DNA of 64,000 nucleotides from an uncultured virus (IMG/VR IMGVR_UViG_3300021399_000104) (lineage: Duplodnaviria > Heunggongvirae > Uroviricota > Caudoviricetes), in IMG/VR virus record IMGVR_UViG_3300021399_000104; one strand, written 5' to 3'. Each line of letters begins with the position of its first letter. Position 1 is the first letter of the stretch. Position numbers and translations under genes: made by a program. The notes under the pieces are model-generated. The model was not told the DNA's origin and did not search any database. It was given only the letters and a program-made list of their open reading frames with translations. This document shows positions 28,814 through 59,419 of the stretch, in pieces.

Positions 28814-28895
28814 AAAAATAAACGGGAAGAACTATCTATCTCAGACTATTCTCCCCTTACGATCTTTTCATGACTGCATTGTAAAACACATATTA
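28814..28895 (-). ncRNA. Small RNA candidate A
   Basis: Promoter 28896-28909, variable segment, GUCU-GAGAU-AGAU-AG hairpin, U-tract. Confidence 0.55.
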
Positions 28896-28939
28896 TCACT
28901 TATAAGGAATACAGACGCCACAGAAAAAATAAAGGGGAA

Positions 28940-29197
28940 TTATTTCATCCCCTTAGTGTTTTCCCAGAGAAGATGTTTTATCTCCTTAAAATCAACATAC
29001 TTCCCTTTTGCTTTGTACTTTAACCAGTATTTGGTTAAGTTACATCTAAGTTCATCATAATACTTCTTAGGACTCCTTGTCCGCTTCAAGTAGAGTATTA
29101 CGTCATTTTTAAACCTAAACTTAGCTCTCATTTCTGAGTTTCTAAGATAGCTTGAAAGAGTGGCCGTAGTAATACCACCTACAATTCCATTTGTCAT
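28940..29197 (-). CDS. Small basic hypothetical protein
   Basis: Own promoter motif near 29233. Confidence 0.55.
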   Translation of the reverse strand: MTNGIVGGITTATLSSYLRNSEMRAKFRFKNDVILYLKRTRSPKKYYDELRCNLTKYWLKYKAKGKYVDFKEIKHLLWENTKGMK

Positions 29198-29267
29198 ATT
29201 CCTTTTATTTTTTTTAAGTTAAACATTTTCTCTCATATATAAGGCATTCATTATTTTTTGAGCCAAG

Positions 29268-29347
29268 AAAAAAAGTAAGGCTATTCATCACGAACTACCT
29301 TACTTACCAAAAGAAAATTGACTTGCTTGTTTTATAACTTTAATTGG
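29268..29347 (-). ncRNA. Small RNA candidate B
   Basis: Promoter 29348-29360, GUUC-GUGAU-GAAU-AG hairpin, U-tract. Confidence 0.55.
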
Positions 29348-29423
29348 TCATTTATAAGGAAAAGACGGCCTAAAACTATTATTTTGCGTTTATGAGGTAG
29401 TCCAGTTCTTTATAAATGAATGT

Positions 29424-29918
29424 ATGTTATACTTAATACGAAGTTTTGGGCGAAAGAGAACCTCATTAAAAGTAGGTTTTACTGATAAGCCAGTCTCACG
29501 TTTCTTAACATACCGCCATGATAATCCATTTCACGAGAGAATTTCGACTCGAGAAGGCAGTGCATATGATGAAAAACTAATGCACTTATACCTAGAGTCG
29601 TGGGGTTTTCGTGATAATTTTCTGGATGAATGGTTTTTAGATGTTCCAGAGGTTTACACTTTATTTCATGCTAAGAGAGAAAAGATGTTAAAAAGGGTCT
29701 GGAATTGTCGGGAGAGGTTATTTAAGAAAGATGATTTTAAGCGAGAGAATTTAAAGTGTCGAATTTATGAAGATCTCCGGCTACAACATCGATTCAGTTC
29801 TTCATTCAGTAAGGAGATAGATAAAGTCTGGAAGATTGAGTCTAACAAAAAACTAATTAAGTCGTATGAAAAATTACAAAGAGCAGATCAATTTGGTGAA
29901 GCGATCCGTTATTTCTGA
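29424..29918 (+). CDS. GIY-YIG/T5orf172-like nuclease domain protein
   Basis: LYLI...LKVGFT...R...E..MH...EWF. Confidence 0.6.
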   Translation: MLYLIRSFGRKRTSLKVGFTDKPVSRFLTYRHDNPFHERISTREGSAYDEKLMHLYLESWGFRDNFLDEWFLDVPEVYTLFHAKREKMLKRVWNCRERLFKKDDFKRENLKCRIYEDLRLQHRFSSSFSKEIDKVWKIESNKKLIKSYEKLQRADQFGEAIRYF

Positions 29919-30180
29919 CATTGCTAAAGCCATAAACGATGCATCACTAGAGGGTAAGGAGCAGTTAGAGATAAATATAGATCCTAAAGAAGGTCCTAAT
30001 CGCGTATGCATCCAACTTTACCTTCAACAGCCTATGAATTGTATTATTACCGCATTCAGAAAGACAGATAATGAAGCTGTCGGCGGTATGGACATGACGG
30101 TTGGTGAATGGATAAAGGACCTCGAGAATCAAGAAGTAGAGCATGTCATTGAATTCGCTAGACAACTTGGAATAGAATGA
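29866..30180 (+). CDS. Hypothetical protein
   Basis: 104 aa. Confidence 0.65.
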   Translation: MKNYKEQINLVKRSVISDIAKAINDASLEGKEQLEINIDPKEGPNRVCIQLYLQQPMNCIITAFRKTDNEAVGGMDMTVGEWIKDLENQEVEHVIEFARQLGIE

Positions 30181-30809
30181 AAGATTATTTATTTGGAAGA
30201 ACAACATCATCACTGCAGGTTGGGACATTCTTATATGTTTCTGGTCTTCTTTACCTAAGTCGTAATTTATTCTATGAGCTAAAGGATGAATTAGCGGAAG
30301 AGAAGAGATTTTTTGGTATTGTTCTAACTTATAATCGAACTCTTCAATCTGCCTATACTACTCTATTTGATGAAGTAACAGATGAAGAGGAAGATGTTTA
30401 CCAGAGAATTATTTATCTATACAAGCAAATTATAGTAAAGGAACATAAGAAACTAACACGAAGAGGTTTATCCCGGGCCGATGCTATAATAGTCTTGATA
30501 AATAAAATCTTGGACATAATCGGAGAAGTTCCATCACTCCAAGAATATCCTAATAAAAAAGAATATATTAAGATAAAGAAGGTGATAGATAAGCTTTACG
30601 ACAATATCCGAAATCGCTCAAAGAAATCCAAACTTTATACTTTAACAAATTGGATTAAGAAATTGATGGATATGGAACTTGTTGGTAAGCATCCACTCCC
30701 TATGTTTTCAATTCGAGAAGAGGAGAAGAAAAAAGAAAAATTACCTTTATCTGATTCTGGTATTCGAATTGATGACGAACCAACTAAAGTAACTGAATTA
30801 GAATGGTAG
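30177..30809 (+). CDS. Hypothetical protein
   Basis: 210 aa. Confidence 0.7.
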   Translation: MKDYLFGRTTSSLQVGTFLYVSGLLYLSRNLFYELKDELAEEKRFFGIVLTYNRTLQSAYTTLFDEVTDEEEDVYQRIIYLYKQIIVKEHKKLTRRGLSRADAIIVLINKILDIIGEVPSLQEYPNKKEYIKIKKVIDKLYDNIRNRSKKSKLYTLTNWIKKLMDMELVGKHPLPMFSIREEEKKKEKLPLSDSGIRIDDEPTKVTELEW

Positions 30810-31012
30810 TTGTTAAGAATGAGCCACAGTTAATTGTTAATGACGATGACTTGGCGTGTGATTGTAAAGATACTACACTAGAGAACATGACTATTGGATC
30901 CTTAAACTTTATAATGACTGATCTAGAGAAATTTGGATTGGTTGTTTATCAGGGAAAGAGAGGAACTAAAGTATTAAGATCTAGGCACTTTAGTTGTGGA
31001 ATAGTATCATAA
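30803..31012 (+). CDS. Hypothetical protein
   Basis: 69 aa, followed by terminator. Confidence 0.6.
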   Translation: MVVVKNEPQLIVNDDDLACDCKDTTLENMTIGSLNFIMTDLEKFGLVVYQGKRGTKVLRSRHFSCGIVS

Positions 31013-31067
31013 AAAAAAAGGAATTATATCTTAGAAATTAATCTTTGATATAGTTCCTTCTTATTTT

Positions 31068-33131
31068 TTAAAGTTGATCAATTGCTTCCTTGTATTGATC
31101 TAAGTTTTCAACATACAACTCTCCTTTAACACCAACTCTCTTAATGATAGCTTCGAATTCTTCATCAGAGAGCCTACCACGTTTACCTAATTCTAAGGCA
31201 GTTTCTTTCAAAAGGCCGAGGTTGTCTTGTAGAATTGCCTTCGTTGCTTTCTCCATTGTCTCCCATTCTAATAGTAAGAGTTGCTCAAGATTAGTATCAT
31301 CAAATCCTACTCTATATGCATCTTCAAACTTAGGGCATGTACTAGAATGTTCAAATACTCTAGATCCAAAATATCCACCTTTATATGCATATCGCGACAA
31401 GAGCTCCCAAGATTTTTTCAAGTCATCTATAGAACCTAATGGAATTTCCGACCTTTGAGTATCTTTGAAAACTAATCTCTCTGCCTCATAACCTGCCAAT
31501 CCAATCATTACTTGAGACTGTATGCTTCGACGGGTATAAAAGCTTAGGGTATCTTCTTTTCGACCTCTAGAAATACAATAGCCGCCTTTTCCATCTGATG
31601 TTACTGCTACAATTTCAATAGGTATAATTCCTTTACTTACATATGAAACAATCGCGTGACCAGCTTCATGAACAGCAACAGCATATTTGTACTTTGATAA
31701 ATTCGGATCCCTTAACTCTCCAAGAACTAATCTGACCTGTTTTTTATCAACTTCTCCGTTTTCATACTTTAATAGGATAGTCTTGAATTGAACATTATAG
31801 CCAGATTCAGGATCCTCTACATCTATCTCACATGCCTTACCCTTCAATACTACATCAGATAAGAATGGGACAAGATATGATGAAATCGTTGTAAAGATTG
31901 GTCGTGCTCCTTGAGTTGGATAGACACCTTCACAATATAATAGTTTCCTCATATTATCAGAAACTTTCACGGCAAATCCATTCTCATCCTGAAATTTTCT
32001 CTCAATTCTATGTACTTCGTTTTCAATAATTAATTCGAAGTCTGATTTTCTGAGAGAAGGATATAGGATGATATTATTGCCGAGTCTTGCTATCTGCTCT
32101 GCCCTAAATCTTTTCTTTAATGAATTCTTAATGTCTGAGATGGTTATACCTTTTGTCTCCTTGTAAAAAACATCAGCATCAACATCTGCCGTAATCTCAA
32201 GACCCTCAATAAACGCTTCATCAATGTTACCTAAAACAAATACTAAAGACTTCCTACAATCAACTTGCTTTGGTTTACTTGAATTAGTTAACATTGTCTT
32301 TAACTCAGTCAATAATTCTTGAACCGTTTCGAGACTCTTTAGATGAGCATAGTATTCTGGTCGAGTTATATTAGAACCCCTCTTATTCATGTAAAGTAGA
32401 TTGTTTATGACTTGAGAAGGTAAAATAACAGACAGCTCCTCTTCCTCATCATCACCATCTTCTTTCTTTGGATTAACTGTTGGTAATATAGAATCTCCAA
32501 AATATAACCAACCTAATGTTTGTCTAAGACTTCTACTATCCTCCTTATTAACCAGACGTAGATTATGAATAGGGATAACTCTACCTAATTCTTGTACCCA
32601 GGCCTCAAGATCAGAATAATAAGCGTTAACAGCTGAAATTCTCCAATCTGTGTCAATATAATCTAATATACCAGAATCAACAATCTGCCAGAGAGGACGA
32701 AGATTTGATTTCTCTACCTCCGATCCACTCTCATCTAACGTTCTGGCATACTGAAATTCATCAATCACAAATACCATATTATCTGACCCAACTGCTTCAG
32801 TCTCATCATCATCATCATCAATACAAAGATACTTACGAATTAGATCTGTTAAATTATCAGACTTATTATTATTACTCTCCTGGCCACAATCGAAAAATAC
32901 TGCTCGATTAAGACCTAAGAGCCCTAATAAACGACGAACTAAGGAGGTTTTGCCAGTTCCAGTCATACCAAATAATGATATAACAACTGGACGCTCAATG
33001 ACCTCTGGCGTAATATACCACGATTTAACACAGGTACATACACGATCAATAATATCATCAATCCCGACAAACTCCTTCTTTAACGTCTCTTTCGCATCTT
33101 CAAGTAATTTGATCTTTTCTAATTTTTCCAT
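31068..33131 (-). CDS. Clp-type AAA+ ATPase fused to M41 (FtsH-like) metalloprotease
   Basis: GMTGTGKT, VIDEFQ, FRAEQIARL, GARP; HEAGH and LAGYEAE. Confidence 0.8.
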   Translation of the reverse strand: MEKLEKIKLLEDAKETLKKEFVGIDDIIDRVCTCVKSWYITPEVIERPVVISLFGMTGTGKTSLVRRLLGLLGLNRAVFFDCGQESNNNKSDNLTDLIRKYLCIDDDDDETEAVGSDNMVFVIDEFQYARTLDESGSEVEKSNLRPLWQIVDSGILDYIDTDWRISAVNAYYSDLEAWVQELGRVIPIHNLRLVNKEDSRSLRQTLGWLYFGDSILPTVNPKKEDGDDEEEELSVILPSQVINNLLYMNKRGSNITRPEYYAHLKSLETVQELLTELKTMLTNSSKPKQVDCRKSLVFVLGNIDEAFIEGLEITADVDADVFYKETKGITISDIKNSLKKRFRAEQIARLGNNIILYPSLRKSDFELIIENEVHRIERKFQDENGFAVKVSDNMRKLLYCEGVYPTQGARPIFTTISSYLVPFLSDVVLKGKACEIDVEDPESGYNVQFKTILLKYENGEVDKKQVRLVLGELRDPNLSKYKYAVAVHEAGHAIVSYVSKGIIPIEIVAVTSDGKGGYCISRGRKEDTLSFYTRRSIQSQVMIGLAGYEAERLVFKDTQRSEIPLGSIDDLKKSWELLSRYAYKGGYFGSRVFEHSSTCPKFEDAYRVGFDDTNLEQLLLLEWETMEKATKAILQDNLGLLKETALELGKRGRLSDEEFEAIIKRVGVKGELYVENLDQYKEAIDQL

Positions 33132-33583
33132 TTAATGTAAGTGTTAATATAATAATCTAATGACTCTCTTCTTATCTCTGGGTCCGAAGAAGAATAAAAT
33201 ACAAAGTTTCCAAATCTTGACAACTCATCTATAATCCCAATCATTGTATCCTCAACACTCTTTGGATAATGATTGAAATGAGGAAAAGCTATCATAAAAC
33301 TAAACTCGGAAAAACTAAATACCTTAACTAACTTCGGCTCTATCTCTTGAACCAATGTAAAAATGTCAACAAAACGCTGAGTAATCTGTTTATCTGGCAA
33401 AGAGAATAACCAACACCGAATATCTAAATCCGAATTGATAAACTCTTTCTTAATAGCATCACCCTTAGAACTATCAGCCGTTTCTTCATTAACCTCTTGC
33501 AGTGGATCAAAAGAATCTAGTATTAATTTAGCCGGTATCCTGTCCATATAAGGTTGAGCCGGTATATATAATGCTTTTATCAT
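33119..33583 (-). CDS. Hypothetical protein
   Basis: 154 aa. Confidence 0.7.
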   Translation of the reverse strand: MIKALYIPAQPYMDRIPAKLILDSFDPLQEVNEETADSSKGDAIKKEFINSDLDIRCWLFSLPDKQITQRFVDIFTLVQEIEPKLVKVFSFSEFSFMIAFPHFNHYPKSVEDTMIGIIDELSRFGNFVFYSSSDPEIRRESLDYYINTYIKWKN

Positions 33584-34281
33584 TTTATTATAGATTCAAT
33601 TAGTTTATCTTTCATTTCTTTAGTAAGGATTTGAGTCGAGAAAGAATATCCAAAACCATCAGTGTCGGTAAAACAAAAATACGAATAACCTTTGTCATCC
33701 TTTCCTAACCATATGTCCTTAATATTATCCTTCTGCTCTTTTAGTAAGGGAGTAATGACATGTTCAATTAAATCCCTAGAAACAGAAAGAGAATAAGGTG
33801 TTGATAAAGTAGATATAAGAGCATCAAAACTAATCAACCCCTCCGCTATCTTCTTACTCATATCAACTAACTCTGAATCTGATGCACAAGGAGCAATAGA
33901 CTTCATTAACCACATAACCGATTCTAAAGTATTCTCTAATAGATCACCAGGAAAATCATTATCACTGTCCTCCCCCTGATCTAAAGCCTGATAAATCAAT
34001 GCAAGTGCTGATAAAATCTCAGAATCTGGCTTAGTATCATAATCTTGATAACTAATAACCATCCTCTTAGTACCCTCACGCTGTGGATATAATGAAATAT
34101 ATGCCGCCTCTGTGATAAGCTTAAATTGTGTAGTATCAATTAACCTACTTAAAGCCTGATAAAACGAGGATGTGATTAAGCCAATATTAATCAAAGCTTT
34201 ATCACTAATCCCCTCAGCCTCACGATAAGTTTCAAGATAACGACACAATCCTAATAAATAATTAATGTGTTTATCTTTCAT
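33580..34281 (-). CDS. Hypothetical protein
   Basis: 233 aa. Confidence 0.7.
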   Translation of the reverse strand: MKDKHINYLLGLCRYLETYREAEGISDKALINIGLITSSFYQALSRLIDTTQFKLITEAAYISLYPQREGTKRMVISYQDYDTKPDSEILSALALIYQALDQGEDSDNDFPGDLLENTLESVMWLMKSIAPCASDSELVDMSKKIAEGLISFDALISTLSTPYSLSVSRDLIEHVITPLLKEQKDNIKDIWLGKDDKGYSYFCFTDTDGFGYSFSTQILTKEMKDKLIESIIK

Positions 34282-34301
34282 TTTCTTAGTCTTTTTATCA
34301 T

Positions 34302-34334
34302 TTCAAGTATAAGGTTTCTATTCCTTATAAATGA
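34302..34334. promoter_or_regulatory. Back-to-back divergent promoter cassette
   Basis: Copy of 26321-26342. Confidence 0.7.
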
Positions 34335-34371
34335 TGAGAAATTTTATTTTAATACTAAATTAAAAGAAGAG

Positions 34372-35574
34372 ATGAAACAAAAATGGATCTTTGAAGGAGA
34401 GACTGGAGTGTTCTTTCCTATCTCTGCATCAGTTAAACTCCATCCAACACCAGGACCAGGCGTGTATAAGGTAGTAAAATCACCTAACCCCAGAGATAAT
34501 AGATTGGGATTACAGCCAATGGGAATGGAAAAGTTTGAATTCCCCGGCAAAGTTTATGACCTGGGAATGAACGATATGATTGGAAAGATTAAGAAAACAT
34601 GGGAGGCTGAGCAATTTAAAAAAGGAAAAAAGAACCTGACAGTAGTACTCAATGGACTTAAAGGATCCGGCAAAACATATATGGCTAAGATGATGGCTAA
34701 TGATATGGATCTGCCTACCCTAATTGTTGATAACGATTTTGAAGGTGATATTATTTCATTCCTGTCTGATATTGAATTCGAATGTACTGTCTTGATCGAT
34801 GAGGCAGAGAAGATTTTCAATAGAGATAATGGAAACTCACATATCCTGCTTAGACTTCTCGATGGTATCTTTAACGGAGCTAGAAAATTCATAATCTTAA
34901 CTACCAATACATTTACAATCGACGATAACTTGGTAGGAAGACCAGGACGAGTAAGATATGTGAAGAAATTCTCATCACTGCCTCTTGATACAGTCCTCGA
35001 AATAATTGATGATGAACTCGAGGATAAATCAAAGAAAAATTATGTGAAAGAAATCGTTGAAAGACTTAGCATCTCAACCGTAGACGTTGTTAGATCTATT
35101 ATCGAAGAAGTTAATATACATGGAGAAGTTGATAATAATATTTTCTCCATCCCATTCGCACCTTACTCCTTCGATGTAATCTCCATACCTAGAAAAACTA
35201 GAGCCGATATACCACAAATTAAGGAAATATTCGACAAGTATGGAGTGAAACCTGGTATAACAATGGCGGAGCTGGATAAAGAAATTAAGGTGTCAAAGAC
35301 GGGAAAAGATGAAGATCTCTGTACCTATAACCTGATCGAAATAATTGAATGGGAAATCTATAATCATGGATATTGTAGCTATTTCACAGCAGCCAGACTA
35401 AAATCAAACTTCCCAACTCTCTTCCCAGGATCTGATACTAGCTTTGGAGAAATCTTGGAAGCACCTGATAAGGATGGATTCTTTACATATCGAGAAGCAG
35501 GAGGATCAGATATTAGACTCGGATGGATGTTAGGAAATAGAGTAGACCCACTTCTTTACGGCAAACTAATCTAA
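34372..35574 (+). CDS. AAA+ ATPase
   Basis: GLKGSGKT, LIDEAEK, LLDG, TTN, RPGR. Confidence 0.85.
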   Translation: MKQKWIFEGETGVFFPISASVKLHPTPGPGVYKVVKSPNPRDNRLGLQPMGMEKFEFPGKVYDLGMNDMIGKIKKTWEAEQFKKGKKNLTVVLNGLKGSGKTYMAKMMANDMDLPTLIVDNDFEGDIISFLSDIEFECTVLIDEAEKIFNRDNGNSHILLRLLDGIFNGARKFIILTTNTFTIDDNLVGRPGRVRYVKKFSSLPLDTVLEIIDDELEDKSKKNYVKEIVERLSISTVDVVRSIIEEVNIHGEVDNNIFSIPFAPYSFDVISIPRKTRADIPQIKEIFDKYGVKPGITMAELDKEIKVSKTGKDEDLCTYNLIEIIEWEIYNHGYCSYFTAARLKSNFPTLFPGSDTSFGEILEAPDKDGFFTYREAGGSDIRLGWMLGNRVDPLLYGKLI

Positions 35575-35582
35575 ACTACGCT

Positions 35583-35798
35583 ATGAATAAATATATATTG
35601 AACGACATCATTAAAAGCAAAGTAGCACCCGGAGTATCTTTTAAAGTAATCGGGGTAAACGAGAACGAGGAAACCTATACTCTACAACCTGTCTATATTT
35701 GTGAAGGAGGATTTAGTAGAGAAATAAGAGGACAACAAAGAAAAATATCTTTTAACGACGGAAAAACTCAATACGAAAAAAGATGGATGATCAGATAA
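35583..35798 (+). CDS. Hypothetical protein
   Basis: 71 aa. Confidence 0.6.
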   Translation: MNKYILNDIIKSKVAPGVSFKVIGVNENEETYTLQPVYICEGGFSREIRGQQRKISFNDGKTQYEKRWMIR

Positions 35799-36466
35799 AA
35801 GACTTCAGAAAATTCTATCAAAGCTACGGACAAAGAAAGTCAATGACAGAGTTCGATGACTTCACTACTAAGATGTATCAAAACCCATATATCTTGGAAG
35901 AACGAGAAATGAATGTAACTCAACTCGACGTCTTCTCTAGATTAATGGCAGAACGAATGATCTTCTTTATAGGCGAAGTCGAAGCCGTGTCATGCTCAAT
36001 TATATCTGCTCAACTTATGTACCTCAATAGCATAGATGAGGATACAGATATAACAATCAATATTAACTCACCTGGCGGAGTTGTCTATGACGGAAATTCA
36101 CTCATAGATACAATCGGAGCTATCAATGCACCCGTCAAAACTGTTAATATCGGATTGGCAGCTTCTATGGGACTGGTCATACTTAGCGCTGGCCGAAAAG
36201 GAAAAAGAATCGGACTACCACACGCTAAATATCTACTTCATCAACCACTTGGAGGAGCAGATGGACCACTTGCCGATATCGAAATTAGCTACCAACAACT
36301 CAAACTCGCTAAAGAAGAATTGTATGAGTTTATGGCACAACGAACAGGCCAAACGAAAGAAAAACTCATAGAACTTAGCCCAAGAGATTATTGGTTTGGT
36401 TCAGAAAAAGCACTCGAATACGGATTTATCGACGAAATACAACAAATAGACTGGTCGAAAAAATGA
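35783..36466 (+). CDS. clpP: ClpP protease proteolytic subunit
   Basis: DVFSRL, INSPGG, AASMG (Ser), LHQP (His), RDYW (Asp). Confidence 0.95.
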   Translation: MDDQIKDFRKFYQSYGQRKSMTEFDDFTTKMYQNPYILEEREMNVTQLDVFSRLMAERMIFFIGEVEAVSCSIISAQLMYLNSIDEDTDITININSPGGVVYDGNSLIDTIGAINAPVKTVNIGLAASMGLVILSAGRKGKRIGLPHAKYLLHQPLGGADGPLADIEISYQQLKLAKEELYEFMAQRTGQTKEKLIELSPRDYWFGSEKALEYGFIDEIQQIDWSKK

Positions 36467-36780
36467 TAGTGTCGAGGAAAATAGCTAAACTCCTTAAACG
36501 ACTTGGCTATAACGAACTAACCGTCGACGAGTACTGGATGAACTACGAAACTCCACAAAAATATATCGAGGCTGAACTCATTGGAATAAAACCAGAATTT
36601 AGACTACCCGCGCCTAAACCATACGACGCACTGACTTGGCTGGCAAAATTCCATAACGCAAAATTTGTAATCGAGAAAAATTATTGCCAGATCATCGGAC
36701 TAGGAAAATGCGTCGAAAAATATGGCGCTGAACCCGATGTCGCAATAATAATGTGCCTCGAAAAACTTGTGGAAAACTAA
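36463..36780 (+). CDS. Hypothetical protein
   Basis: ATGA-coupled, VS..IAKLLK.LGY. Confidence 0.65.
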   Translation: MIVSRKIAKLLKRLGYNELTVDEYWMNYETPQKYIEAELIGIKPEFRLPAPKPYDALTWLAKFHNAKFVIEKNYCQIIGLGKCVEKYGAEPDVAIIMCLEKLVEN

Positions 36781-36829
36781 AATAAAAAAGAGAACTGGAT
36801 AGAAAAATCTGGCTCTCTTTATTTTTTTC

Positions 36830-37450
36830 TCGAACGGTGTAGGCGGATGCACATAGGAGGACTCTGTAACAGCGAGAATTATAAGTATGGAATACATACT
36901 AGGACACAACGCTGTATCACTATAAAGTGCAAGGTCTCTCATACGTAGTATGAAATAATCTGCACTTGTCAACAGGTCGATGGCTACGCCAAGCCCGGGC
37001 CCATTGCCTACGTTTCGCTAACGCTACACTCCAACAATGCCCAAGCCATCTCCCCGGGGCCTCCTCGCTGCACGCGCTTCGTCGGCCACGCTCCCCTACC
37101 CCTGAGAAAACCCCCTATAAAGACTATCAAGTGGGAATGAAAGGAGATGAAAAGTCGTAATGAAGCGTTAGCGGAATTAGACTTTGAATCGACTGGAATG
37201 ATTGATGAGGATAATAGGGAAGGTATAAGGGGTAGTATTGGTTCGACGATTATGGGATATTATGGGGAAGACGAACGGATCACTGAAGCGGAAATAATCC
37301 CCCTCGAAACGAAATCTTGAACTGAAACGAAAACCTCTTGACGAACGTAGTGAGGAGAGATGGTTGAAGTGAAAGTGAAAAGATGAAGTGAAGAGGGGGA
37401 TTATTGAAGCGGAAGGGATGAAGAGTGAGGATGACAATAATGAATAATAC
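36830..37450. other. Probable replication origin
   Basis: Non-coding, GC-rich hairpins with CGCTAACGCT-type loops and their complements, strand-composition switch, next to helicase. Confidence 0.55.
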
Positions 37451-37617: not shown

Positions 37618-37656
37618 TTATATTAACAAATTAATTAATTTTTACAAACTTTTATT

Positions 37657-48198: not shown

Positions 48199-48200
48199 TT

Positions 48201-51599: not shown

Positions 51600-52044
51600 C
51601 AATTATTTAAAAGAGACTAACATTCCAAGTGACCTGACAGGATATATTGTGCTTGGAGAATTAGAACCGGAATTTAAAAATAAAGTCGATCAAGCCTATA
51701 CTACTGATAAAGATGCGTTCCTGTCTAATTTTATCATAGTTGTAAAAGGTGGGATTGTGATGGCCTCGCCTGAAGTGTCTGAATATTACCTGGGAGATGA
51801 GGAATTGTTTGAGATGATAAAGTCTAAAGTTAAAGAGTCAAGAGATAAACTTAATGAAATAGATTGGAATCTTCTTAATGGCTTAAATCAATACAAGGAA
51901 GCAATTGATAATGATTCTTATAAATTTGCACCTTATTATTGGTCAGGAATGAATGGAGCTAATAGTGTTTGGTGTAATCCATCTACCTTAACAACTTCAG
52001 TAACTTCAGGAACATATTATAATACTACAACAACCTCATACTAA
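51592..52044 (+). CDS. Hypothetical protein
   Basis: 150 aa. Confidence 0.7.
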   Translation: MSDNYLKETNIPSDLTGYIVLGELEPEFKNKVDQAYTTDKDAFLSNFIIVVKGGIVMASPEVSEYYLGDEELFEMIKSKVKESRDKLNEIDWNLLNGLNQYKEAIDNDSYKFAPYYWSGMNGANSVWCNPSTLTTSVTSGTYYNTTTTSY

Positions 52045-52443
52045 ATGGAAAACATATCTTACAATTACACGAGTAGATTTTCATTAGTTGAAGATTTGGC
52101 GGCATTTTGGCAAGAACGATTACCAGAGATTCCTAGAATTAAGACACTAATGATGAACGTACAGCTCTTATTCAACTTGCCATCTAATCGTGTAATGTTG
52201 GAAGTAGCTGAAGGACAAAGAATTTATAAGGTAACGTTTATGACCCCTGATGTAGAAAAAATTCCTTTCGGATGGGTTGTATATCTGCCTCAAATTAAAC
52301 AAATAGACCTGTATTCTGTTAGAGATGCCGGAATGCCTATGGTGCAATGGAAGAATAAGAAGATTGTAACTAAGAATTTCGACTATCTATTTGAACGAGC
52401 AGGTATAGAAACGATATTTAATAAACTAGTCAATTCATTATGA
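52045..52443 (+). CDS. Hypothetical protein
   Basis: 132 aa. Confidence 0.7.
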   Translation: MENISYNYTSRFSLVEDLAAFWQERLPEIPRIKTLMMNVQLLFNLPSNRVMLEVAEGQRIYKVTFMTPDVEKIPFGWVVYLPQIKQIDLYSVRDAGMPMVQWKNKKIVTKNFDYLFERAGIETIFNKLVNSL

Positions 52444-52775
52444 GAGATGATCAAACTAGAGTCCTTGTGTCAGATTGGAAGACTATTAAACAATTTATAC
52501 CAGTCGATCCTCAGGCAGAAGAACAAGGACTAACACCACGATTCGGTTGGGTAACTGATAACCTTAGAATTAAGTACGGTATCTATGTAGAAGCTAGACC
52601 TGTTACTAATTCAGAGCTATCACAAGAAGGTCCATCACAAGCAGTTTATGGATTTAAAGGTACTGCTATCTACCTGAAAGATAGTATAGTCTATAAGAAC
52701 TTTACTATTTCTAAATCTACTTATTTTGCTGCCATCCGAGAAGCTATTAATAAAGCTATCGAATGGGTGAAATAA
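52440..52775 (+). CDS. Hypothetical protein
   Basis: 111 aa. Confidence 0.7.
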   Translation: MRDDQTRVLVSDWKTIKQFIPVDPQAEEQGLTPRFGWVTDNLRIKYGIYVEARPVTNSELSQEGPSQAVYGFKGTAIYLKDSIVYKNFTISKSTYFAAIREAINKAIEWVK

Positions 52776-52892
52776 TCTAACATGGGAGAGAAGATCTATT
52801 AGGGATTTTTCTTTCCCTTCTTTTCTTTATATGAGAGAGGAAAAACTCTCAATGTATTAAATTAAATTATTAACAACTTAAACAAAATTAAA

Positions 52893-53513
52893 ATGACGAA
52901 AGCAGAAATTAAAAAATGGATGAACATTGGAATGGTCGTCCTAGGAGCAATCGGTGCCGGTGCTGCTGTCTTTTTCGCAGGTCGGCAAGGTCTTAAGCAC
53001 TTTAAAGCTTTAGAGGCAGCTAGAATGGCAGCTGAAGCGTATCGACAGTCTAACCCTTCACAACAAGCAGAAGGTGATTTTGCACAGCCTAAAGTTGGTT
53101 GGGGTGAAAACTGTGGATATCATGGGAGTATCTATTCTCAGTCTAAGCCATCTGCAGTTAAGAAGAAGGAAAATGATGAGGAGACTGCACTTCTACTTTG
53201 CGTTCAGTCTATCGCATCTATGTTCTCTAAGCTGTTTAAAGTATGCCAGGCAGGTGTGATGATCGCTCGTGAACTCTCTAATGTGTTCAAGCCAGATCTC
53301 ATTGGCCAGGATCAGTATTACGGTGAAAATGTTTGGGATAATCGAGTCTTCAACAATACTCATACCTATAATAATGGTTGGGGAGCTCCAAAACAAGACC
53401 CAAACAATCCGGCCCCATGTTGGTTCAGACGCATCAACCCTATGATTGTTGAGGCTGTTCCTTACAATAAGCCAAATCAGCCCTCTTACTTCAATAGCGG
53501 CTGGGATTGCTAA
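52893..53513 (+). CDS. Membrane-anchored hypothetical protein
   Basis: N-terminal TM helix. Confidence 0.7.
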   Translation: MTKAEIKKWMNIGMVVLGAIGAGAAVFFAGRQGLKHFKALEAARMAAEAYRQSNPSQQAEGDFAQPKVGWGENCGYHGSIYSQSKPSAVKKKENDEETALLLCVQSIASMFSKLFKVCQAGVMIARELSNVFKPDLIGQDQYYGENVWDNRVFNNTHTYNNGWGAPKQDPNNPAPCWFRRINPMIVEAVPYNKPNQPSYFNSGWDC

Positions 53514-53830
53514 TTGGAACTGGTTAAAACCTTGGCTTCTGAAATGATATATGAAGCTACACGAACTGAGCTAACCTAAATCTATATGAATCCGAACCAT
53601 ATTACGTTGACCCCGGATTATCAAATGGGCCAGAACCGTATAGAACGATTGAAGAGAAAATTATATTATTAAGACAACCAATTAAGAGAATTTAATACAC
53701 CAGAAAAAACAAACAACCTAATGTGTCCAGGTTGCTCATTTTTTTTTCTTCTCTCTTCTAAACAAAAAAAAAATAAAGAAGGGAAAGAACTTAATCCTTC
53801 CCTAATTTCATTTTTAACTTCTCAATCTAA

Positions 53831-54787
53831 TCAATCAAGTCTTTCAACATCCCATTCCGGGTCGTGTTGCTCTAGAATGATCTTCTTATCATGAGCAGTC
53901 AGTTTTGCCAGTTCTTCTCCTAATTTGATTCCGTCTTCTCCGATGAATTTGTCTTCACCACGGAATCGGTTATATAGGTCTTGAACTTTTCTCAGCTCTC
54001 GCCTCCATGTGGGTTTGAAGCTGATTTCATAGATATTCTCTTCTGTTCCGTCCCCAATCTTTGAATATACTTTCACAGGGACAAAACCTAAGATCTCCTG
54101 TACCTTTTCTAATCCTAACCCAATATGAGCATAGATTCTCTTTATGGGCTGAGACTGATAGTATACATCACGTACAACTTTCCATTCTACTCCCGGTGCT
54201 AAATTAATAGCCTCGTTGAACCGGACAAGTCGAACGATCTTTGATTTTGATTCTTGGAGCTCTTTGATTAAGCCTCTCGACCCTCCACTCCAATCATAGT
54301 TATGTCGTAAGTAAGAGGACATTGCATCCACACTTACAGCACTTCCTTGACGACGTATTGCAGCCGCCAATTGATATTCCAGCCAAGATACCTGTTTAAT
54401 TTCAGGAACCTCGACTTCTTTCTTCTCCGCCTTTATAATAATAGGTGCGGAAGAAGTGTCCTTTATAGATACCTTCTTCTTTGGCAAAAAAGCTGCGTCA
54501 ATAGCTGCTTCTGCCTTTGGAAGGTCAGTAATTTCCCAAACACGGGGAATCTGACGACCCTTGACCTTAACAGAGTCATCAATTACTGAGTTTAACAATG
54601 GACCAAGTACTTTTGTCATGGTCAACACTGCCTGAGAAGGAACTATTTTTCTTTGTTCCCCTCGTTTGATGTTCTCCCCAGAAATGAGGAGATACAATTC
54701 ACTCGTAGTTGTGAGCTTACCACTCATCTTTCGAATGATGGTCTTATAGAAATCAGCCCACTCAAAAACCTTAGAATGAGGGTTCAT
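53831..54787 (-). CDS. Hypothetical protein
   Basis: 318 aa. Confidence 0.75.
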   Translation of the reverse strand: MNPHSKVFEWADFYKTIIRKMSGKLTTTSELYLLISGENIKRGEQRKIVPSQAVLTMTKVLGPLLNSVIDDSVKVKGRQIPRVWEITDLPKAEAAIDAAFLPKKKVSIKDTSSAPIIIKAEKKEVEVPEIKQVSWLEYQLAAAIRRQGSAVSVDAMSSYLRHNYDWSGGSRGLIKELQESKSKIVRLVRFNEAINLAPGVEWKVVRDVYYQSQPIKRIYAHIGLGLEKVQEILGFVPVKVYSKIGDGTEENIYEISFKPTWRRELRKVQDLYNRFRGEDKFIGEDGIKLGEELAKLTAHDKKIILEQHDPEWDVERLD

Positions 54788-55050
54788 ACGCTGCCCTCCT
54801 TTCTCCCAACTACCTTTCCAAGCTGGTAGTTAAGGTTGTTGTTCTCGTGGCTAAGTCTCCGGTTTTGCTTTTCCAGACCCCGAACTTCGCCCCTTAATCT
54901 TTCATTCTCAGTACCAGCAGAGTCTAACTTTCTCTGCAATTTTCTGTTTTCGTTCATCTTCCACAGGCCTATTCCGCCTAATAGAAGAATTCCAGTAATG
55001 GCAACGATAAACGGTACCACTTTCTTCTTTTTCTTTTCTTCTGTCTCCAT
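54784..55050 (-). CDS. TM + coiled-coil small protein
   Basis: Poly-Lys, TM helix, heptads. Confidence 0.7.
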   Translation of the reverse strand: METEEKKKKKVVPFIVAITGILLLGGIGLWKMNENRKLQRKLDSAGTENERLRGEVRGLEKQNRRLSHENNNLNYQLGKVVGRKEGSV

Positions 55051-55145
55051 TTTTGATTTTTTTTAATTGGTTAATACTAAAGTTAATATTTTTATTATGA
55101 ATAGGTACTCAGCTATTTTTCTATACCCTTTCCCCAAGATTTTTC

Positions 55146-55328
55146 TTAATTCTGCTGAGGAGTTTTTTCTTCCTCCTCTTCGTCTTCAACCCCAAATGCT
55201 TTCGCTAAGGGTTTTACTAGATACTCATTAGCTAATGGCGCTGTGGCATCATACACCACATTGCCAACATGGGTAGAAATTGCTCCTACCACGAACAAGG
55301 TTATACCTTGTACTACTAAACTTAACAT
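55146..55328 (-). CDS. Small hydrophobic peptide with acidic tail
   Basis: 60 aa. Confidence 0.65.
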   Translation of the reverse strand: MLSLVVQGITLFVVGAISTHVGNVVYDATAPLANEYLVKPLAKAFGVEDEEEEEKTPQQN

Positions 55329-55485
55329 TTTCTAATCTTATTTTAGTTAAACGTAAATATTTCATTACGAATAAAGTTAGCTGTCTCTCCAAGCTGTCAC
55401 CTAATTATTAATCGCATTAGGTTAACTGGATTCTTTAATATATTCTGTTGCCAAGTTGAAGTTCTCCCTCTTCAACTCCGATTCA

Positions 55486-55716
55486 TCATTCCAAGTGTCC
55501 TCCAAGGAATGATATGCCAGAATCACTGAAATTAACTTCAGTAATACCCTTGGCAATCTCATCACGAGTCAGAGGCCTGTAATCCTTATCCTTCCACAGA
55601 TAATCTTCAGGATTCTCTGCCTCTTTTACGAGATAATCAAGAAATTGTTCCCTGCTTTCAGCGGCATAAACAAGCTCGCCAAAATAATTAGGAACTTTCA
55701 ATTTAAAAATCTTCAT
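55486..55716 (-). CDS. Hypothetical protein
   Basis: 76 aa. Confidence 0.65.
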   Translation of the reverse strand: MKIFKLKVPNYFGELVYAAESREQFLDYLVKEAENPEDYLWKDKDYRPLTRDEIAKGITEVNFSDSGISFLGGHLE

Positions 55717-55900
55717 TACCTACTTATTTTAAGGTAACTACTAAACCAATTTCTATTTGAATTGGCATCAAGTCAATCTGATTTTTTATAGGTGTCAGAT
55801 AAACCTAATCATCTCTTCATTATTCCCCATCAATAAGGGATTTGTCAACTGCTTTGAATAGGTACTCAGCTATTTTTCTATACCCTTTCCCCAAGATTTT

Positions 55901-56080
55901 TTATTCTTTTTTGTCGTTGTAGAAAGGAATATGTATCCCCTCTCTACTCAATACCTCTGGAATGACATCTTCTGTCATCCAGTCCTTAATCCAGAGGCCT
56001 ATATCTTTCAGACCTCTACCAACTCCCTCTCCTATTCCTCTTCCAATAAGAGAGAAAACGTCTAATAGAATTTTATTCAT
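55901..56080 (-). CDS. 59-aa amphipathic peptide (below ORF-track cutoff)
   Basis: MNKILLDVFSLIGRGIGEGVGRGLKDIGLWIKDW...KKE*. Confidence 0.6.
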   Translation of the reverse strand: MNKILLDVFSLIGRGIGEGVGRGLKDIGLWIKDWMTEDVIPEVLSREGIHIPFYNDKKE

Positions 56081-56158
56081 ATTTTATTTATTTAGTTGTT
56101 TGTTATGAATCGAAATTTATTGTTAGTTTAATTTCGGTTGCAATAACTTGAGTATTGC

Positions 56159-56215
56159 CACTGTTTCGACCTTGTTAATGGTCTCTTCAGGATAGGAATC
56201 AACCTATCTACAGTG
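56159..56215 (-). ncRNA. Type III hammerhead ribozyme
   Basis: CACUG-UA / GAUAGG..CCUAUC / CUGAAGA / GACC..GGUC / GAAA-CAGUG: complete core and three stems. Confidence 0.92.
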
Positions 56216-56278
56216 TTTCTCATATATAAGGAAAAGCAAAGAGAGGCTACCTTTTAATTTAGATAACCTCTCTTAAAC

Positions 56279-56473
56279 TTATTCTTTTTTACTACCTCCC
56301 AGGAAAATTTCCTTTAGGAGGCCCTCGTTGTCCTGGATGAACCAACCAACCAAGACTATGATTCCAATCCAGCCCAGGATGCTGAGCCAGAATATTTGAT
56401 GAAATCCACTGGCCATAAGAGCCAGGGTCAGAATTAACAGGATCCAACCTGTTATTTTTACTAAACTTTTCAT
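56279..56473 (-). CDS. Small two-TM membrane protein
   Basis: 64 aa, hydrophobic. Confidence 0.65.
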   Translation of the reverse strand: MKSLVKITGWILLILTLALMASGFHQIFWLSILGWIGIIVLVGWFIQDNEGLLKEIFLGGSKKE

Positions 56474-56514
56474 ATTTTTTATTTTTAGTTAAACATTACG
56501 AATAAATATTTTTA

Positions 56515-57165
56515 TTTGCCTTAGACTTCTCTTCTAAGGATTTTTGATATAAAACGACATGCTTCTTGTTCGTACTCTTCGTCTACTTATTCTTCACATT
56601 GTCGTAAGTGATACTGTAAACATCACTCCCATTATATCACGATCTTATACTTAAACTATAATCATTTACAGTGGTTATATTTCTTTCTAAGTTCAGGTAA
56701 TCGATTTACCCTACCTCGTTTTGAAAGATTTCTCTAGTCCACCTTTATCAGATGTTTTCAATCTTTCTTGGTATCAGAACTTTTTCAGTCCTAATTATTT
56801 TATTTGTTATATTGAGTAGAAGTTAGACTAAAACGTCCTTACTCCTTACTCTGTTTTGAATTCCACATTTTTTTTATAAATCTTTATTCCGCTCGCCGCC
56901 TAACATACAGAAATGAAGGCTTAACAACTTCCTTCCTGAAATTAATCAGTTCTGTATGGTGTGACTACTTTATACTCGCAGCGTCGAGTCCAGCATGGCC
57001 AAACTGGTGATTCGCTATGATCTGACTTACCTCACACAACCTTTAGTATGGTCATTTAAAGATATTTCTACCTTTCTCATAGCTAGTGTCCTAAACGAAA
57101 CACGCCAAAAATAAAACGAGGTAAACTTAATTACCTCCTTTAGTGGCCCTTTTCAAGCCAATTCT
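56515..57165 (-). ncRNA. Large structured ncRNA candidate
   Basis: No ORF of 60 aa or more, promoter at 57170-57183, many local and long-range helices. Confidence 0.6.
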
Positions 57166-57203
57166 TTTATCATATATAAGGAATTGAGTGGTATTTGAGA
57201 AGG

Positions 57204-57283
57204 AAAAAATAAGGGGAACTATTCTCACGAACGGTTCCTCCTCGGTTATAAACTTTTTGGAAATAATAGATTTTGTTATTCAT
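57204..57283 (-). ncRNA. Small RNA candidate C
   Basis: Promoter 57284-57297, GUUC-GUGA-GAAU-AG hairpin, U-tract. Confidence 0.55.
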
Positions 57284-57361
57284 CTATATATAAGGAATTG
57301 AGCCGGAAATGAGAATAAAAAAAAATAGAAAACTTTTTAAGGTTCCCTATTAGGTGTTCAG

Positions 57362-57709
57362 AATACTAACTTTCATCTAGATTCCAACTAGATTCTCCGA
57401 TTCTCTTAATTAGGATTGTCGGTATGTTGGCCCTTATAGTTACAAATTTCTATAAAATCTGCTTTCTACATTTTTATGATAAACATAAAATGTGTGGATG
57501 AACTACAACACCCGAGACACCATTTGCAAAACGCATTTGGCTTACATTTTATAGCCGGCCATATTATAGGTGTCTTGTTCCTCTTTGAACTAAATGATTC
57601 ACCAATATGACCGGCTAATTCGTTATCTAAATTTTATAATACTAACTTTCATCTAGATTCCAACTAGATTCTCCGATTCTCTTAATTAGGATCGTCGGCG
57701 TGTTGGCCC
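57362..57709. repeat. 72-bp imperfect direct repeat (57362-57433, 57638-57709) flanking mini-IS
   Basis: Identical except 3 substitutions. Confidence 0.9.
57436..57641 (-). mobile_element. Non-autonomous IS607 derivative carrying omega RNA scaffold
   Basis: 57436-57450 = 5086-5100; 57499-57550 = 5148-5198 plus 1 nt; left-end-like AGTAT|..TAAAATTTA. Confidence 0.8.
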
Positions 57710-57993
57710 ATATACACCACCCAGTTAGTATCTGAAATTTTATTTTATGTTGTTTATTGTATGTTTTGAATAATGTTATTTCGTTATCACTATAATTGAT
57801 TATACAAGTTTTTAAGCTTTATAATCTTATTCATTTTACTGAATACATAATGGATATAATCTGGTTTCGATATCACCAATAATTATAGTTCTGATAACAA
57901 TTTTATTAATATGAATTTTGTGTCCCAAATAAAAATTTATATTCTTCCATATATTAGGAATTGGGGGCCTCTAAATTTCCTATCCCCCTTTAG

Positions 57994-58320
57994 TCTCTCG
58001 GTTGGGATTCGAACCCAAGACCCACAGCTTAGCTTACCACTATAGTTTTCACTACCCTATATTTTAAATATAAGTTTGTGGTCTGGACTATTTCTAAACC
58101 ATGCTATTTCTAGTTTAGGTAATCCCCGTATAGTCTCTACGCACTGCACCTATCTCTAGGGCTTGGCACGTCGTTGGCTTATTTATTTCTAAACTTAGCT
58201 TTCGTCGTTTAGGGGATTTTCTACATTCTCAGTTTCCCAAGATGCACTCCTATTTTTCGTAAGTTTTTAAGCCTACGAAAGTTTAAAGGCTGTTGCTCTA
58301 TCCAGCTGAGCTACCGAGAG
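57994..58320 (-). tRNA. tRNA-Arg(TCT) split by group I intron
   Basis: Exons 58320-58286 and 58032-57994 form a canonical cloverleaf with loop CTT^CTAA. Confidence 0.9.
58033..58285 (-). ncRNA. 253-nt group I intron without ORF in tRNA anticodon
   Basis: Follows U, ends in G, AGAGACTA and AATAGTCC P7 elements. Confidence 0.85.
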
Positions 58321-58408
58321 ATCATTTTCTATTTTTCCATATATTAGGAAAAGGAGGCTTCTAAATTTCCTTAATACAGAGTCCACAGAAAAATAAAAGA
58401 AGAGGATT

Positions 58409-58744
58409 TTACTCCTCCTCCTTCTCTTGTTGTTCTAGTCCATTCATTTCTTCTTGGACGATAGTTTTTCTGGAATCATCCATAATTAGATACAGTCCAA
58501 ACAGTGTAAATCCACAGACTATCATTATACTTATGGCCCAGAATGAAACGCTATATGAGCCAAACAGATCACACATACACATGATCGTAAAAGTCACATG
58601 TGTTATTAATCCACCAATCCAAAACTTATTAATTGGCTTGGGTAACTTTTCTTTTCCAAGACATCCAACATAGAATCTCAGAAAAAAGTACATTAACACG
58701 ACAAATCCTGTTTCTGCCGCAAGTAATCCAAAAAAGTCTTTCAT
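58409..58744 (-). CDS. Membrane protein
   Basis: Three hydrophobic segments. Confidence 0.7.
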   Translation of the reverse strand: MKDFFGLLAAETGFVVLMYFFLRFYVGCLGKEKLPKPINKFWIGGLITHVTFTIMCMCDLFGSYSVSFWAISIMIVCGFTLFGLYLIMDDSRKTIVQEEMNGLEQQEKEEE

Positions 58745-58881
58745 CTTTCTTTTGTTTTATAATTAAACATTTATTTTTCTTTCATATATAAGGAATTCAT
58801 TATATTATTAACCCAGAAAAAAAAAATAAGGGGAACTATTCTCACGAACGGTTCCTCCCTACTTTACCGGAATACTCTTCA

Positions 58882-59196
58882 TCACATATTTTTCCGATGC
58901 TTGTCAGCGATCTCCTTGAACGCCAGTTTCTTTAATATGTATGTGTCATCCTTAATAGCAAGACACATAGACTTCATCTCATCCACAAGCTCCTCTGTCT
59001 CTGGAGCTCTATTGCTTTGTAAAGATTCAAATAAAGTTCCTATCTGCTGCTCGGCCGCTATAGCCATAATCAGCAAGTTTCGGGAGTTAAAACTTCCCTT
59101 TTTGTCTGCCTGTGCTGTTTCATAGTTAACACAGGCTTGGATGTCCTTCAATTCGGACTTAAGATCCAATAACACCCTTTCTGCCATATTTCCCAT
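58882..59196 (-). CDS. Hypothetical protein with GUGA-hairpin terminator (58830-58859)
   Basis: 104 aa; promoter near 59271. Confidence 0.65.
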   Translation of the reverse strand: MGNMAERVLLDLKSELKDIQACVNYETAQADKKGSFNSRNLLIMAIAAEQQIGTLFESLQSNRAPETEELVDEMKSMCLAIKDDTYILKKLAFKEIADKHRKNM

Positions 59197-59304
59197 AATT
59201 AAAAAAATTTATGATCCCTTAGACTTTATTTCTGTCTTTAGGATCTGATTAAACAATATGATTTTATCTATCATATATAAGGCATTGAATAGTGTTCAGG
59301 AAGG

Positions 59305-59380
59305 AAAAAAAAATAAGGAGAAACTATCTATCTCAGACCATCTCTCCTACTTTTCTAACTATTATGAAAACACCTTTACT
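59305..59380 (-). ncRNA. Small RNA candidate E
   Basis: Promoter 59381-59393, GUCU-GAGAU-AGAU-AG hairpin, U-tract. Confidence 0.55.
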
Positions 59381-59419
59381 TCAAATATAAGGATTCTTTC
59401 CCTTATATGTGATACGAAG

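Follow-up and report, generated by a model that had tools for sequence, protein, structure and literature searches.

A conserved RNA hairpin was found five times on the minus strand of a 64,000-nucleotide stretch of DNA (hereafter the window) from an uncultured virus of the Caudoviricetes (IMG/VR record IMGVR_UViG_3300021399_000104), and appears, on a slight balance of probability, to be a module or handle of RNA 3' ends that is read by a protein, with small gene-less transcription units either mass-producing the handle or marking boundaries. All five copies have a common inner core (GUYY, a GNGA(N) loop and RRAU), an outer stem that is variable and still paired, and a U-tract. The hairpin is common to the phages and the mobile elements of Bacteroidales and is far rarer in five host genomes; it holds a fixed place before signals that form RNA 3' ends, and its gene-less units recur in a clade of giant phages. 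The window has the 33-39% G+C and the character of phage DNA, and its products include topoisomerase II subunits, an SbcC-like nuclease, ClpP, HNH nucleases and many proteins without a known family.

A preliminary description of this DNA had placed the five hairpins and proposed that four of them end promoter-driven small RNAs (units A to D, Table 1). Exactly these five were recovered both by a regular expression for the core and by R1, a covariance model built from the hairpins of other phages together with the window's own, which scored them at 28.8-36.8 bits (E 1e-5 to 6e-8) and the runner-up at 11.6 bits (E 1.7). With RNAfold the predicted hairpin forms in 5/5 copies, and a run of 5-10 T directly follows each of them. 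The hairpin alone is worth -10.9 to -15.3 kcal/mol in the four copies caught by a terminator scan, and the whole units fold at -15.5 to -19.7 kcal/mol. By sequence criteria, all five copies are intrinsic terminators, each being a stable hairpin followed by a U-rich tract. The fifth copy lies at the end of an mRNA, as described earlier, 23 nt after the stop codon of an open reading frame (ORF); together with the hairpin of unit C it forms a 44-nt repeat that is 95% identical.

The suggestion that the hairpin is undescribed is supported by the Rfam scans, no Rfam 15 family matching it. A scan of the window at the gathering thresholds gave only a transfer RNA (tRNA) at 16847-16950, and one of 56900-59500 at E<=10 gave nothing on the hairpins. 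Among 34 hairpin loci the only Rfam matches were to tRNA, to tmRNA-like and Hatchet RNAs and, below threshold, a few to Plastid-ycf2 over tRNA genes. The core sequence strings matched only an unrelated yeast paper, and no description of the hairpin was found in the literature, searched apart from its supplements, on crAss-like transcription, Bacteroides terminators and phage tRNA arrays.

The anatomy of the hairpin was taken from an alignment of 65 copies from the window and other phages. The outer stem may have any sequence and is usually of 6-9 pairs; between it and the inner stem a conserved unpaired A sits opposite one mismatched base. The inner stem has four pairs (G.U, U-A, Y-R and Y-R), thus opening with a G.U pair, and carries a GNGA loop with or without one extra base. 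The AG earlier given as the 3' part of the core is more precisely the unpaired A and one base of the first outer-stem pair. The aligned hairpins agree with the earlier remark that the outer stems differ and still pair, this pairing figure being partly circular as the rows were picked for having an outer stem. The rows were not picked for their pairing at the two variable inner pairs, of which the first is U-A in 50 cases, C-G in 13 and U-G in one, and the second C-G in 51, U-A in 12 and U-G in one. Since C-A is seen at neither, these two pairs represent true covariation. For the outer stem, a less biased figure comes from IMG/VR scans made with the core only, which gave, among the matches listed, at least four complementary bases flanking the core in 133 of 196 loci; our own estimate of the chance expectation is about 2%.

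The sequences directly after the hairpin were examined in the least biased set available, that of 54 non-redundant viral contexts from scans in which a T-run was not required. TTTT occurs within 10 nt in 22 of the 54 (against 7% of random positions in the same loci), a same-strand tRNA called by ARAGORN starts within 30 nt in nine, and TTT occurs within 6 nt in seven. Among 162 unique hairpins, 15 are followed at 2-13 nt by the start of a same-strand tRNA and none has an opposite-strand tRNA downstream, and where a tRNA lies upstream, its end is mostly 18-102 nt from the hairpin. In the cultured phage crAss001 there is one copy, at 1879-1908, placed 45 nt after a tRNA-Arg and 6 nt before a tRNA-Glu. 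In loci L093, L167 and L114 a Hatchet ribozyme (RF02678, 82-93 bits) starts no more than about 12 nt from the hairpin end, and in the first two it overlaps the hairpin by a few bases. The cleavage site of Hatchet is its very 5' end (PMC6561176), and PMC4604424 describes a P0 hairpin 5' of the cut in about 90% of Hatchets, unconserved and with a role that is unknown. A U-tract, an RNase P site and a ribozyme cutting at its own 5' end would each leave the hairpin at, or a few nucleotides from, the 3' end of an RNA, which argues for a 3'-end module rather than a handle specific to small RNAs. The earlier notion of such specificity is thus contradicted, the hairpin also ending mRNAs and preceding tRNAs (2-13 nt) and Hatchet ribozymes in unrelated phages. 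The accompanying notion of a protein-binding handle survives in part: the apical part is conserved, covarying and similar to a protein site, and is not peculiar to small RNAs. No positional signal for TTTG or TAnnTTTG, as of a host-type promoter at a fixed upstream distance, was seen in 162 contexts, nor was a common upstream word in 98 non-redundant ones.

Some features of the surroundings are recorded separately. A word of the form TTTTCATGGTA stands 10-45 nt upstream of the hairpin in L130, L159, L189, L232, L233, L249 and L273, which are otherwise different tRNA-array spacers, and a related word precedes the crAss001 hairpin. In L163, L191 and L270 a G+C-rich, pseudoknot-like element with weak tmRNA-like Rfam matches (14-18 bits, far below threshold) follows within 4 nt and is possibly another RNase P substrate or ribozyme. 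The phage and prophage tRNAs of 95-127 nt that follow at 5-10 nt in L137, L116, L303 and L305, called by Rfam and missed by ARAGORN, may carry long inserts or variable arms. Several known elements were considered and set aside. The HDV-like theta ribozymes sit directly 3' of tRNAs (PMC10879173), the spacers before the hairpin misfit their fold by eye, and the Rfam scans of hairpin loci gave no HDV match. The Bacteroides opsX/UpxY recruitment sites (PMC11685472) have a different sequence. With regard to the core itself, the G.A tandem or the AGUA/GAA elements that define K-turn, sarcin-ricin, T-loop and C/D-box motifs are absent.

The hairpin is widespread among viruses. Scans of IMG/VR with the two exact cores of the window gave 82 and at least 114 stretches, amounting among the matches listed to 227 cores in 196 loci, many of them on multi-copy contigs. 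The window has five copies per 64 kb, and other phage records have 3-17 per 40-363 kb. By R1, a complete 125-kb phage has nine copies, eight of them within 2.4 kb of a tRNA array; seven were found in record G004 and three each in G001 and G003, and the giant-phage records G013, G014, G015 and G016 hold 10, 17, 5 and 7, respectively. Kolpuevirus Bc03 has one copy, at 93770-93799. When cultured phages were searched by BLAST, L001 gave no match and the matches of L199 were confined to tRNAs.

A scan of bacterial genomes, one per species, with one core and a T-run gave 71 loci, of which 54 belong to a Bacteroidales taxon by record title, and about 66 of the 76 cores in these loci, counted among the matches listed, sit in a hairpin. 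In five host genomes (about 23 Mb) the core pattern has 54 matches against 24 for a reversed-pattern control, and the density of hairpins is tens of times below that in phages. The host copies inspected occur by helix-turn-helix, integrase, methylase or DnaB-like genes, in a prophage-like tRNA array, downstream of a capsule kinase gene and, in eight species of the Prevotella group (named Prevotella, Prevotellaceae or Xylanibacter), before a DUF2851 gene. As a separate observation, a small palindrome, GCTACAAAKGTAGC, abuts the 5' side of the hairpin in the Bacteroides loci L292, L290, L299, L302 and L311, which are divergent intergenic regions of mobile-element-like loci; its opposite strand holds what we take to be the Bacteroides -7 promoter box.

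Four of the window hairpins close units without an ORF, each composed of a promoter-like motif, a variable segment (34, 41, 43 and 44 nt in units D, A, C and B, respectively, which is also the distance from motif to hairpin), the hairpin and its U-tract. Predicted RNAs would be of roughly 75-95 nt. The word TCCTTATAW occurs 14 times in the window against 3.6 expected, a number reached in 0/100 shuffles, and the motif CCT[TA]ATANNTG occurs 18 times, in 11 cases at 0-75 nt upstream of an ORF start. These figures uphold, as a sequence motif, the phage promoter of the preliminary description and, with it, the architecture of the four promoter-to-terminator units, with the qualification that the motif of unit C is a one-base variant (final A, not G). 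A promoter motif also lies 38-44 nt downstream of four of the five hairpins, the exception being that of unit A. A reading of the units as genes for micro-peptides was rejected, since an ATG before the hairpin is lacking in units B and D and the 37-codon frame of unit C crosses the terminator. Neither do the units resemble a CRISPR array: the outer stems differ, every unit has its own promoter and the spacers range from 24 to 72 nt, and no cas-like family was found among 25 window proteins compared with PHROGs or 20 compared with Pfam.

Two other arrangements of the motif were noticed. Three pairs of promoter motifs stand back to back on opposite strands, 8 nt apart (26317-26346, 34304-34333 and 59382-59411), forming a repeated two-way promoter cassette of which one side runs straight into a terminator only at 59.4 kb. 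A variant motif, CCTAATATATGG, with a common 30-nt upstream element occurs on the minus strand at 58338-58348 and 57948-57958, one copy before and one after the split tRNA-like gene at 57999-58315.

Mini transcription units of this kind are a real conserved class. A search of IMG/VR for the promoter motif, a gap of 30-60 nt and the core pattern gave 23 units in 18 loci, 13 of which are on contigs of 250-400 kb and several of which carry tandem pairs or triplets of units. In G013, a complete genome of 353 kb, pattern matching gives 16 hairpins, which lie mainly in arrays at about 189.7, 217.2-218.3 and 247.9-248.2 kb. At least 15 units of this genome have a promoter-like motif within 110 nt of the hairpin, their variable parts being between 24 and 72 nt long, and a tRNA-Leu stands directly before one of the arrays. 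The large subunit of topoisomerase II encoded in the window is 51% identical to that of G013, 44% to that of G014 and 42% to that of G016 (24.7-28.1% in other phages, over 25 matches listed), and a 709-aa window protein shares 33-34% identity with its counterparts in G014 and G016, which places the window in this giant-phage clade. No DNA similarity to the giant-phage fragments G010-G012 was detected, and searches of IMG/VR with the 709-aa protein and with the topoisomerase gave no relative close enough for a comparison of units. A metagenome scan yielded the same phage (99.99% identical, on a contig ending at 57306) and two short fragments that stop short of the units. Units could be compared between G013 and G015, where the promoter and the hairpin are unchanged or differ by one loop base; of four variable parts, one is identical, one differs by one base and two show several substitutions or insertions and deletions. 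The variable part thus changes at least as fast as the promoter and the hairpin and gives no sign of stronger constraint, four pairs being too few to call it neutral.

The juxtaposition of hairpins and promoters may also be read in terms of recombination cassettes like the PeSLs of T4-type phages, each made of a hairpin and the next promoter, which spread small orphan genes and leave gene-less units as empty slots or remnants whose RNAs have no function. Such cassettes are documented (PMC2839356, PMC4122927), and several features of the window would suit them, namely the promoter motif at 38-44 nt after four of the five hairpins, the lack of a PHROG match for the three genes so flanked (85, 104 and 111 aa), the recent 44-nt duplication and the break at 57306, beside the promoter motif of unit C, in the metagenome assembly of the same phage. 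Arrays are also present in G013. However, a single chimera, rather than a promoter and a terminator with 24-72 unrelated bases between them, is the expected outcome when two cassettes recombine; units occupy the same places in G013 and G015; the apical core is also found in small phages that are unrelated, in crAss-like phages and in mobile elements of hosts, all of which lack this promoter; and the tRNA and ribozyme contexts are not explained by shuffling. The cassette account is therefore considered unlikely.

The records that lead to the window point to animal gut or rumen samples. Sequencing runs from animal gut samples contain the window stretch, and RNA contigs from four metatranscriptome runs in two studies cover 56541-57157, 57387-57749, 58033-58286 (the insert of the tRNA-like gene) and 58424-58744 (the gene for 111 aa). 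Neither small RNAs nor strands nor true ends can be read from contigs of this kind, and RNAs of 70-95 nt are rarely retained in such libraries. In three of the runs, which represent both studies, contigs stop at 57157, 57153 and 57137, that is, 14-34 nt downstream of the motif at 57171-57181, a weak hint that this motif marks a transcript start.

Certain parts of the same region are of interest in their own right. The ORF-free segment 57387-57749 (minus strand) has two copies of a repeat of about 70 nt with a variant promoter motif in front and shows the highest contig depth of the covered parts in three of the four runs (up to 74 in one run), and is a candidate for an abundant non-coding RNA. 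The halves of the tRNA-like gene at 57999-58315 (minus strand), called neither as a tRNA nor as a group I intron by ARAGORN or Rfam, are split by about 253 nt that are present in the RNA contigs (58033-58286). Contigs from two runs, including one of 3.5 kb, show a form that skips 58033-58285, and each has two other letters per half; the joined forms are therefore probably uninterrupted tRNA genes of other organisms and not spliced RNA. The Rfam tRNA match at 16847-16950 (plus strand; 104 nt, 46 bits) is uncalled by ARAGORN and overlaps listed ORFs, and is possibly a tRNA with a long insert, like several in other phages.

The preliminary description had seen in the units a class of small RNAs whose variable part may act as an antisense segment. 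The layout of a variable 5' part, a terminator hairpin and a U tail is indeed that of classical base-pairing small RNAs, and spacers that RNase Z and RNase P release from tRNA arrays would have it too. On such a model the variable segment would pair in trans with start regions of phage or host genes, the hairpin being a chaperone handle. The 12-nt complementarity reported between unit D and the start of gene 17621 also exists. The four variable parts were compared by RNAduplex with 128 ORF starts of the window, with 40 shuffles for each part, and shuffled sequences were as good or better in 33, 28, 32 and 13 of 40 cases. The last figure is that of unit D, for which gene 17621 is not the best partner, and the complementarity is thus not significant. 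Furthermore, the variable parts are extremely A+T-rich and undergo insertions and deletions between related phages with the hairpin and promoter constant (L336 versus L338). On the evidence of the window's own ORF starts, antisense action in trans is regarded as very unlikely; what endures of the proposed class is its repeated architecture, kept in related giant phages.

A further possibility is that the hairpins are conditional, promoter-proximal terminators (attenuators), at which a phage or host protein reading the loop gates and times the expression of downstream genes or tRNAs. One lineage of tRNA arrays (L085, L137, L164, L243, L268, L303 and L305) has a conserved T/G-rich element directly before the hairpin and U-tract, which in turn directly precede a tRNA; in several mobile-element loci of Bacteroides a start codon follows the hairpin at 30-60 nt; and the loop resembles the GNRA-like loops of lambda boxB. 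Against this, a fresh copy of the promoter follows every window hairpin except that of unit A, so that the downstream gene needs no read-through, the 162 contexts reveal no conserved promoter element at a fixed upstream distance, and no alternative anti-terminator fold was seen. Attenuation is hence regarded as quite improbable.

The reading preferred here, that of a 3'-end module, has to be set against several observations that weigh against it. About a third of the viral contexts (16/54) are without a recognised 3'-end signal, although for four of these Rfam places a tRNA (L084, L127 and L189) or a Hatchet ribozyme (L093) beside the hairpin. At certain Bacteroides loci the hairpin is found between divergent genes, shortly before one of them, a placement that would suit a leader or attenuator no less than a 3' end. 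The RNA contigs leave 57184-57297 and 58780-59900 uncovered, being uninformative for RNAs shorter than 100 nt. The conservation of sequence is partly built in, the scans and the model having been seeded with the window's own cores, and fast folding alone could favour a stable GNRA-capped hairpin. The arrays of G013 contain a second type of terminator (about 217990-218025 on the minus strand, 247800-247845 and 248005-248045 on the plus strand) with an outer stem, an inner stem of G.U, C-G, C-G and U-A, a GUGAU loop and two or three unpaired bases on the 3' side, from which it follows that the U-A pair after G.U is not invariant. Finally, the protein reader of the hairpin is a postulate.

According to the 3'-end reading, a promoter of phage type would fire at a mini-unit, and the nascent hairpin with its U-tract would release the RNA, acting as an intrinsic terminator for the five minus-strand transcription units. 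The hairpin, now at the 3' terminus, could block 3' exonucleases, and its apical part would be read by a conserved protein that is probably encoded by the host. The hairpin, and not the variable part, is then the likely working part of the mini-unit RNAs, and the mini-units may be a cheap, many-copy source of the handle (a decoy or sponge) or may serve as marks or insulators at unit boundaries.

A more far-reaching proposition, which is tentative and on the whole rather doubtful, is that Bacteroidales have an undescribed RNA 3'-end system, exploited by phages, in which the hairpin serves as recognition handle and the mini-gene arrays as decoy or mark. If so, the features recognised by a conserved protein would be the G.U pair, the unpaired A and the GNGA loop; phages would cap with this handle their mRNAs, the spacers of their tRNA arrays and ribozyme-cut RNAs; and the mini-genes of giant phages, with the handle as their sole product, would saturate or recruit the protein or help tell phage from host RNA. 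Little is known of RNA biology in Bacteroidales, and even less of that in their phages; to our knowledge, Bacteroidales have neither Hfq nor ProQ. A short, searchable hairpin would permit the annotation of transcript boundaries and small-RNA genes in gut viromes, including crAss-like phages, giant gut and rumen phages and the mobile elements of hosts. It gives a context to the unexplained P0 hairpin of Hatchet and points to an RNA-binding factor that could be fished with a 30-nt bait, and the gene-less arrays of phages of about 350 kb would represent a novel type of non-coding RNA locus in phages. As the cultured crAss001 has a copy beside a tRNA, the idea is testable at the bench now.

The positions of the units and of the neighbouring features are given in Table 1. 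Two further elements of the window are unrelated to the conserved hairpin: a second repeated terminator, a two-way hairpin of 33 nt identical at 18390-18423 and 28767-28800, the latter copy directly following unit A, and a 411-aa ORF at 5111-6346 (minus strand) that matches the phage transposase family phrog_506 (E 3e-53) and represents a mobile-element gene carried by the phage.

Table 1. Gene-less units, conserved hairpins and adjoining promoter-like motifs of the window, in descending order of position.
Feature	Position	Strand	Basis or remark
Unit D promoter-like motif	59382..59392	-	back to back with plus-strand copy 59401-59411
Unit D variable segment, 34 nt, no ATG	59348..59381	-	sequence
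Unit D conserved hairpin, GAGAU loop type	59317..59347	-	R1 28.8 bits; fold
Unit D U-tract	59305..59316	-	sequence
Next promoter-like motif, 35 nt past the unit D hairpin base, before ORF 58882-59196	59272..59282	-	motif
104-aa ORF, no PHROG family, ended by the fifth hairpin 23 nt after its stop codon	58882..59196	-	ORF list, PHROG scan
Fifth hairpin, GUGA loop, predicted terminator of the 104-aa gene; near-identical to that of unit C	58829..58858	-	R1 35.1 bits
Next promoter-like motif, before ORF 58409-58744	58783..58793	-	motif
Unit C promoter-like motif, last base A for G	57285..57295	-	motif
Unit C variable segment, 43 nt	57242..57284	-	sequence
Unit C conserved hairpin, GUGA loop	57212..57241	-	R1 35.1 bits
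Unit C U-tract	57203..57211	-	sequence
Next promoter-like motif after unit C	57171..57181	-	motif; RNA contig ends 14-34 nt downstream
Unit B promoter-like motif	29349..29359	-	motif
Unit B variable segment, 44 nt, no ATG	29305..29348	-	sequence
Unit B conserved hairpin, GUGAU loop	29274..29304	-	R1 36.8 bits
Unit B U-tract	29267..29273	-	sequence
Next promoter-like motif, before 85-aa ORF 28940-29197	29234..29244	-	motif
Unit A promoter-like motif	28897..28907	-	motif
Unit A variable segment, 41 nt	28856..28896	-	sequence
Unit A conserved hairpin, GAGAU loop	28825..28855	-	R1 28.8 bits
Unit A U-tract, then the second, unrelated two-way terminator	28812..28822	-	sequence

Like intrinsic terminators, all five window hairpins are stem-loops directly before a U-tract, downstream of transcription units and co-oriented with them. 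Ordinary terminators, however, share no sequence, whereas here an apical part of 14-15 nt, with its G.U pair, unpaired A and GNGA loop, is maintained in phages that are not related to one another, and the hairpin also occurs without a U-tract, before tRNAs and ribozymes.

The PeSL cassettes of T4-type phages (PMC2839356, PMC4122927) are likewise composites of a terminator stem-loop and a strong promoter, repeated among small orphan genes, with near-identical copies that suggest recombination; stem-loop and promoter are similarly joined in a short repeated cassette at four of the five window hairpins. The window differs in that its motif, CCTTATAWWTG, is not sigma-70-like and has a CCCCTTAA element upstream in relatives, its stem is not of poly-G and poly-C, gene-less units are kept in arrays, and the core of the hairpin is shared far beyond one phage family. 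The P0 hairpin of Hatchet (RF02678; PMC4604424) also stands a few nucleotides 5' of a cleavage site, and in L093, L167 and L114 P0 is this very motif, whereas P0 has been described as having no sequence conservation and as dispensable for catalysis. The window hairpins stand before a U-tract, and Rfam scans found no Hatchet ribozyme in the window.

The boxB elements of lambda-type phages are comparable in their short stem, their GNRA-like loop of 4-5 nt and their location soon after promoters, the resemblance being one of the loop only; the extra loop base of boxB lies elsewhere than in the window hairpin, and boxB is not itself a terminator, is paired with boxA and is bound by N proteins. In small RNAs dependent on Hfq or on ProQ/FinO a 3' hairpin and a U tail are read by a protein, and the arrangement of a variable 5' part, a 3' hairpin and a U tail is common to them and the mini-units. 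In contrast to those RNAs, no pairing with targets was supported here against the ORF starts of the window, and the window type of hairpin also ends mRNAs and precedes tRNAs. The known kinds to which these elements belong are the structured terminator and the phage small-RNA gene, and there is a fair chance that they are the visible part of an undescribed RNA-protein system.

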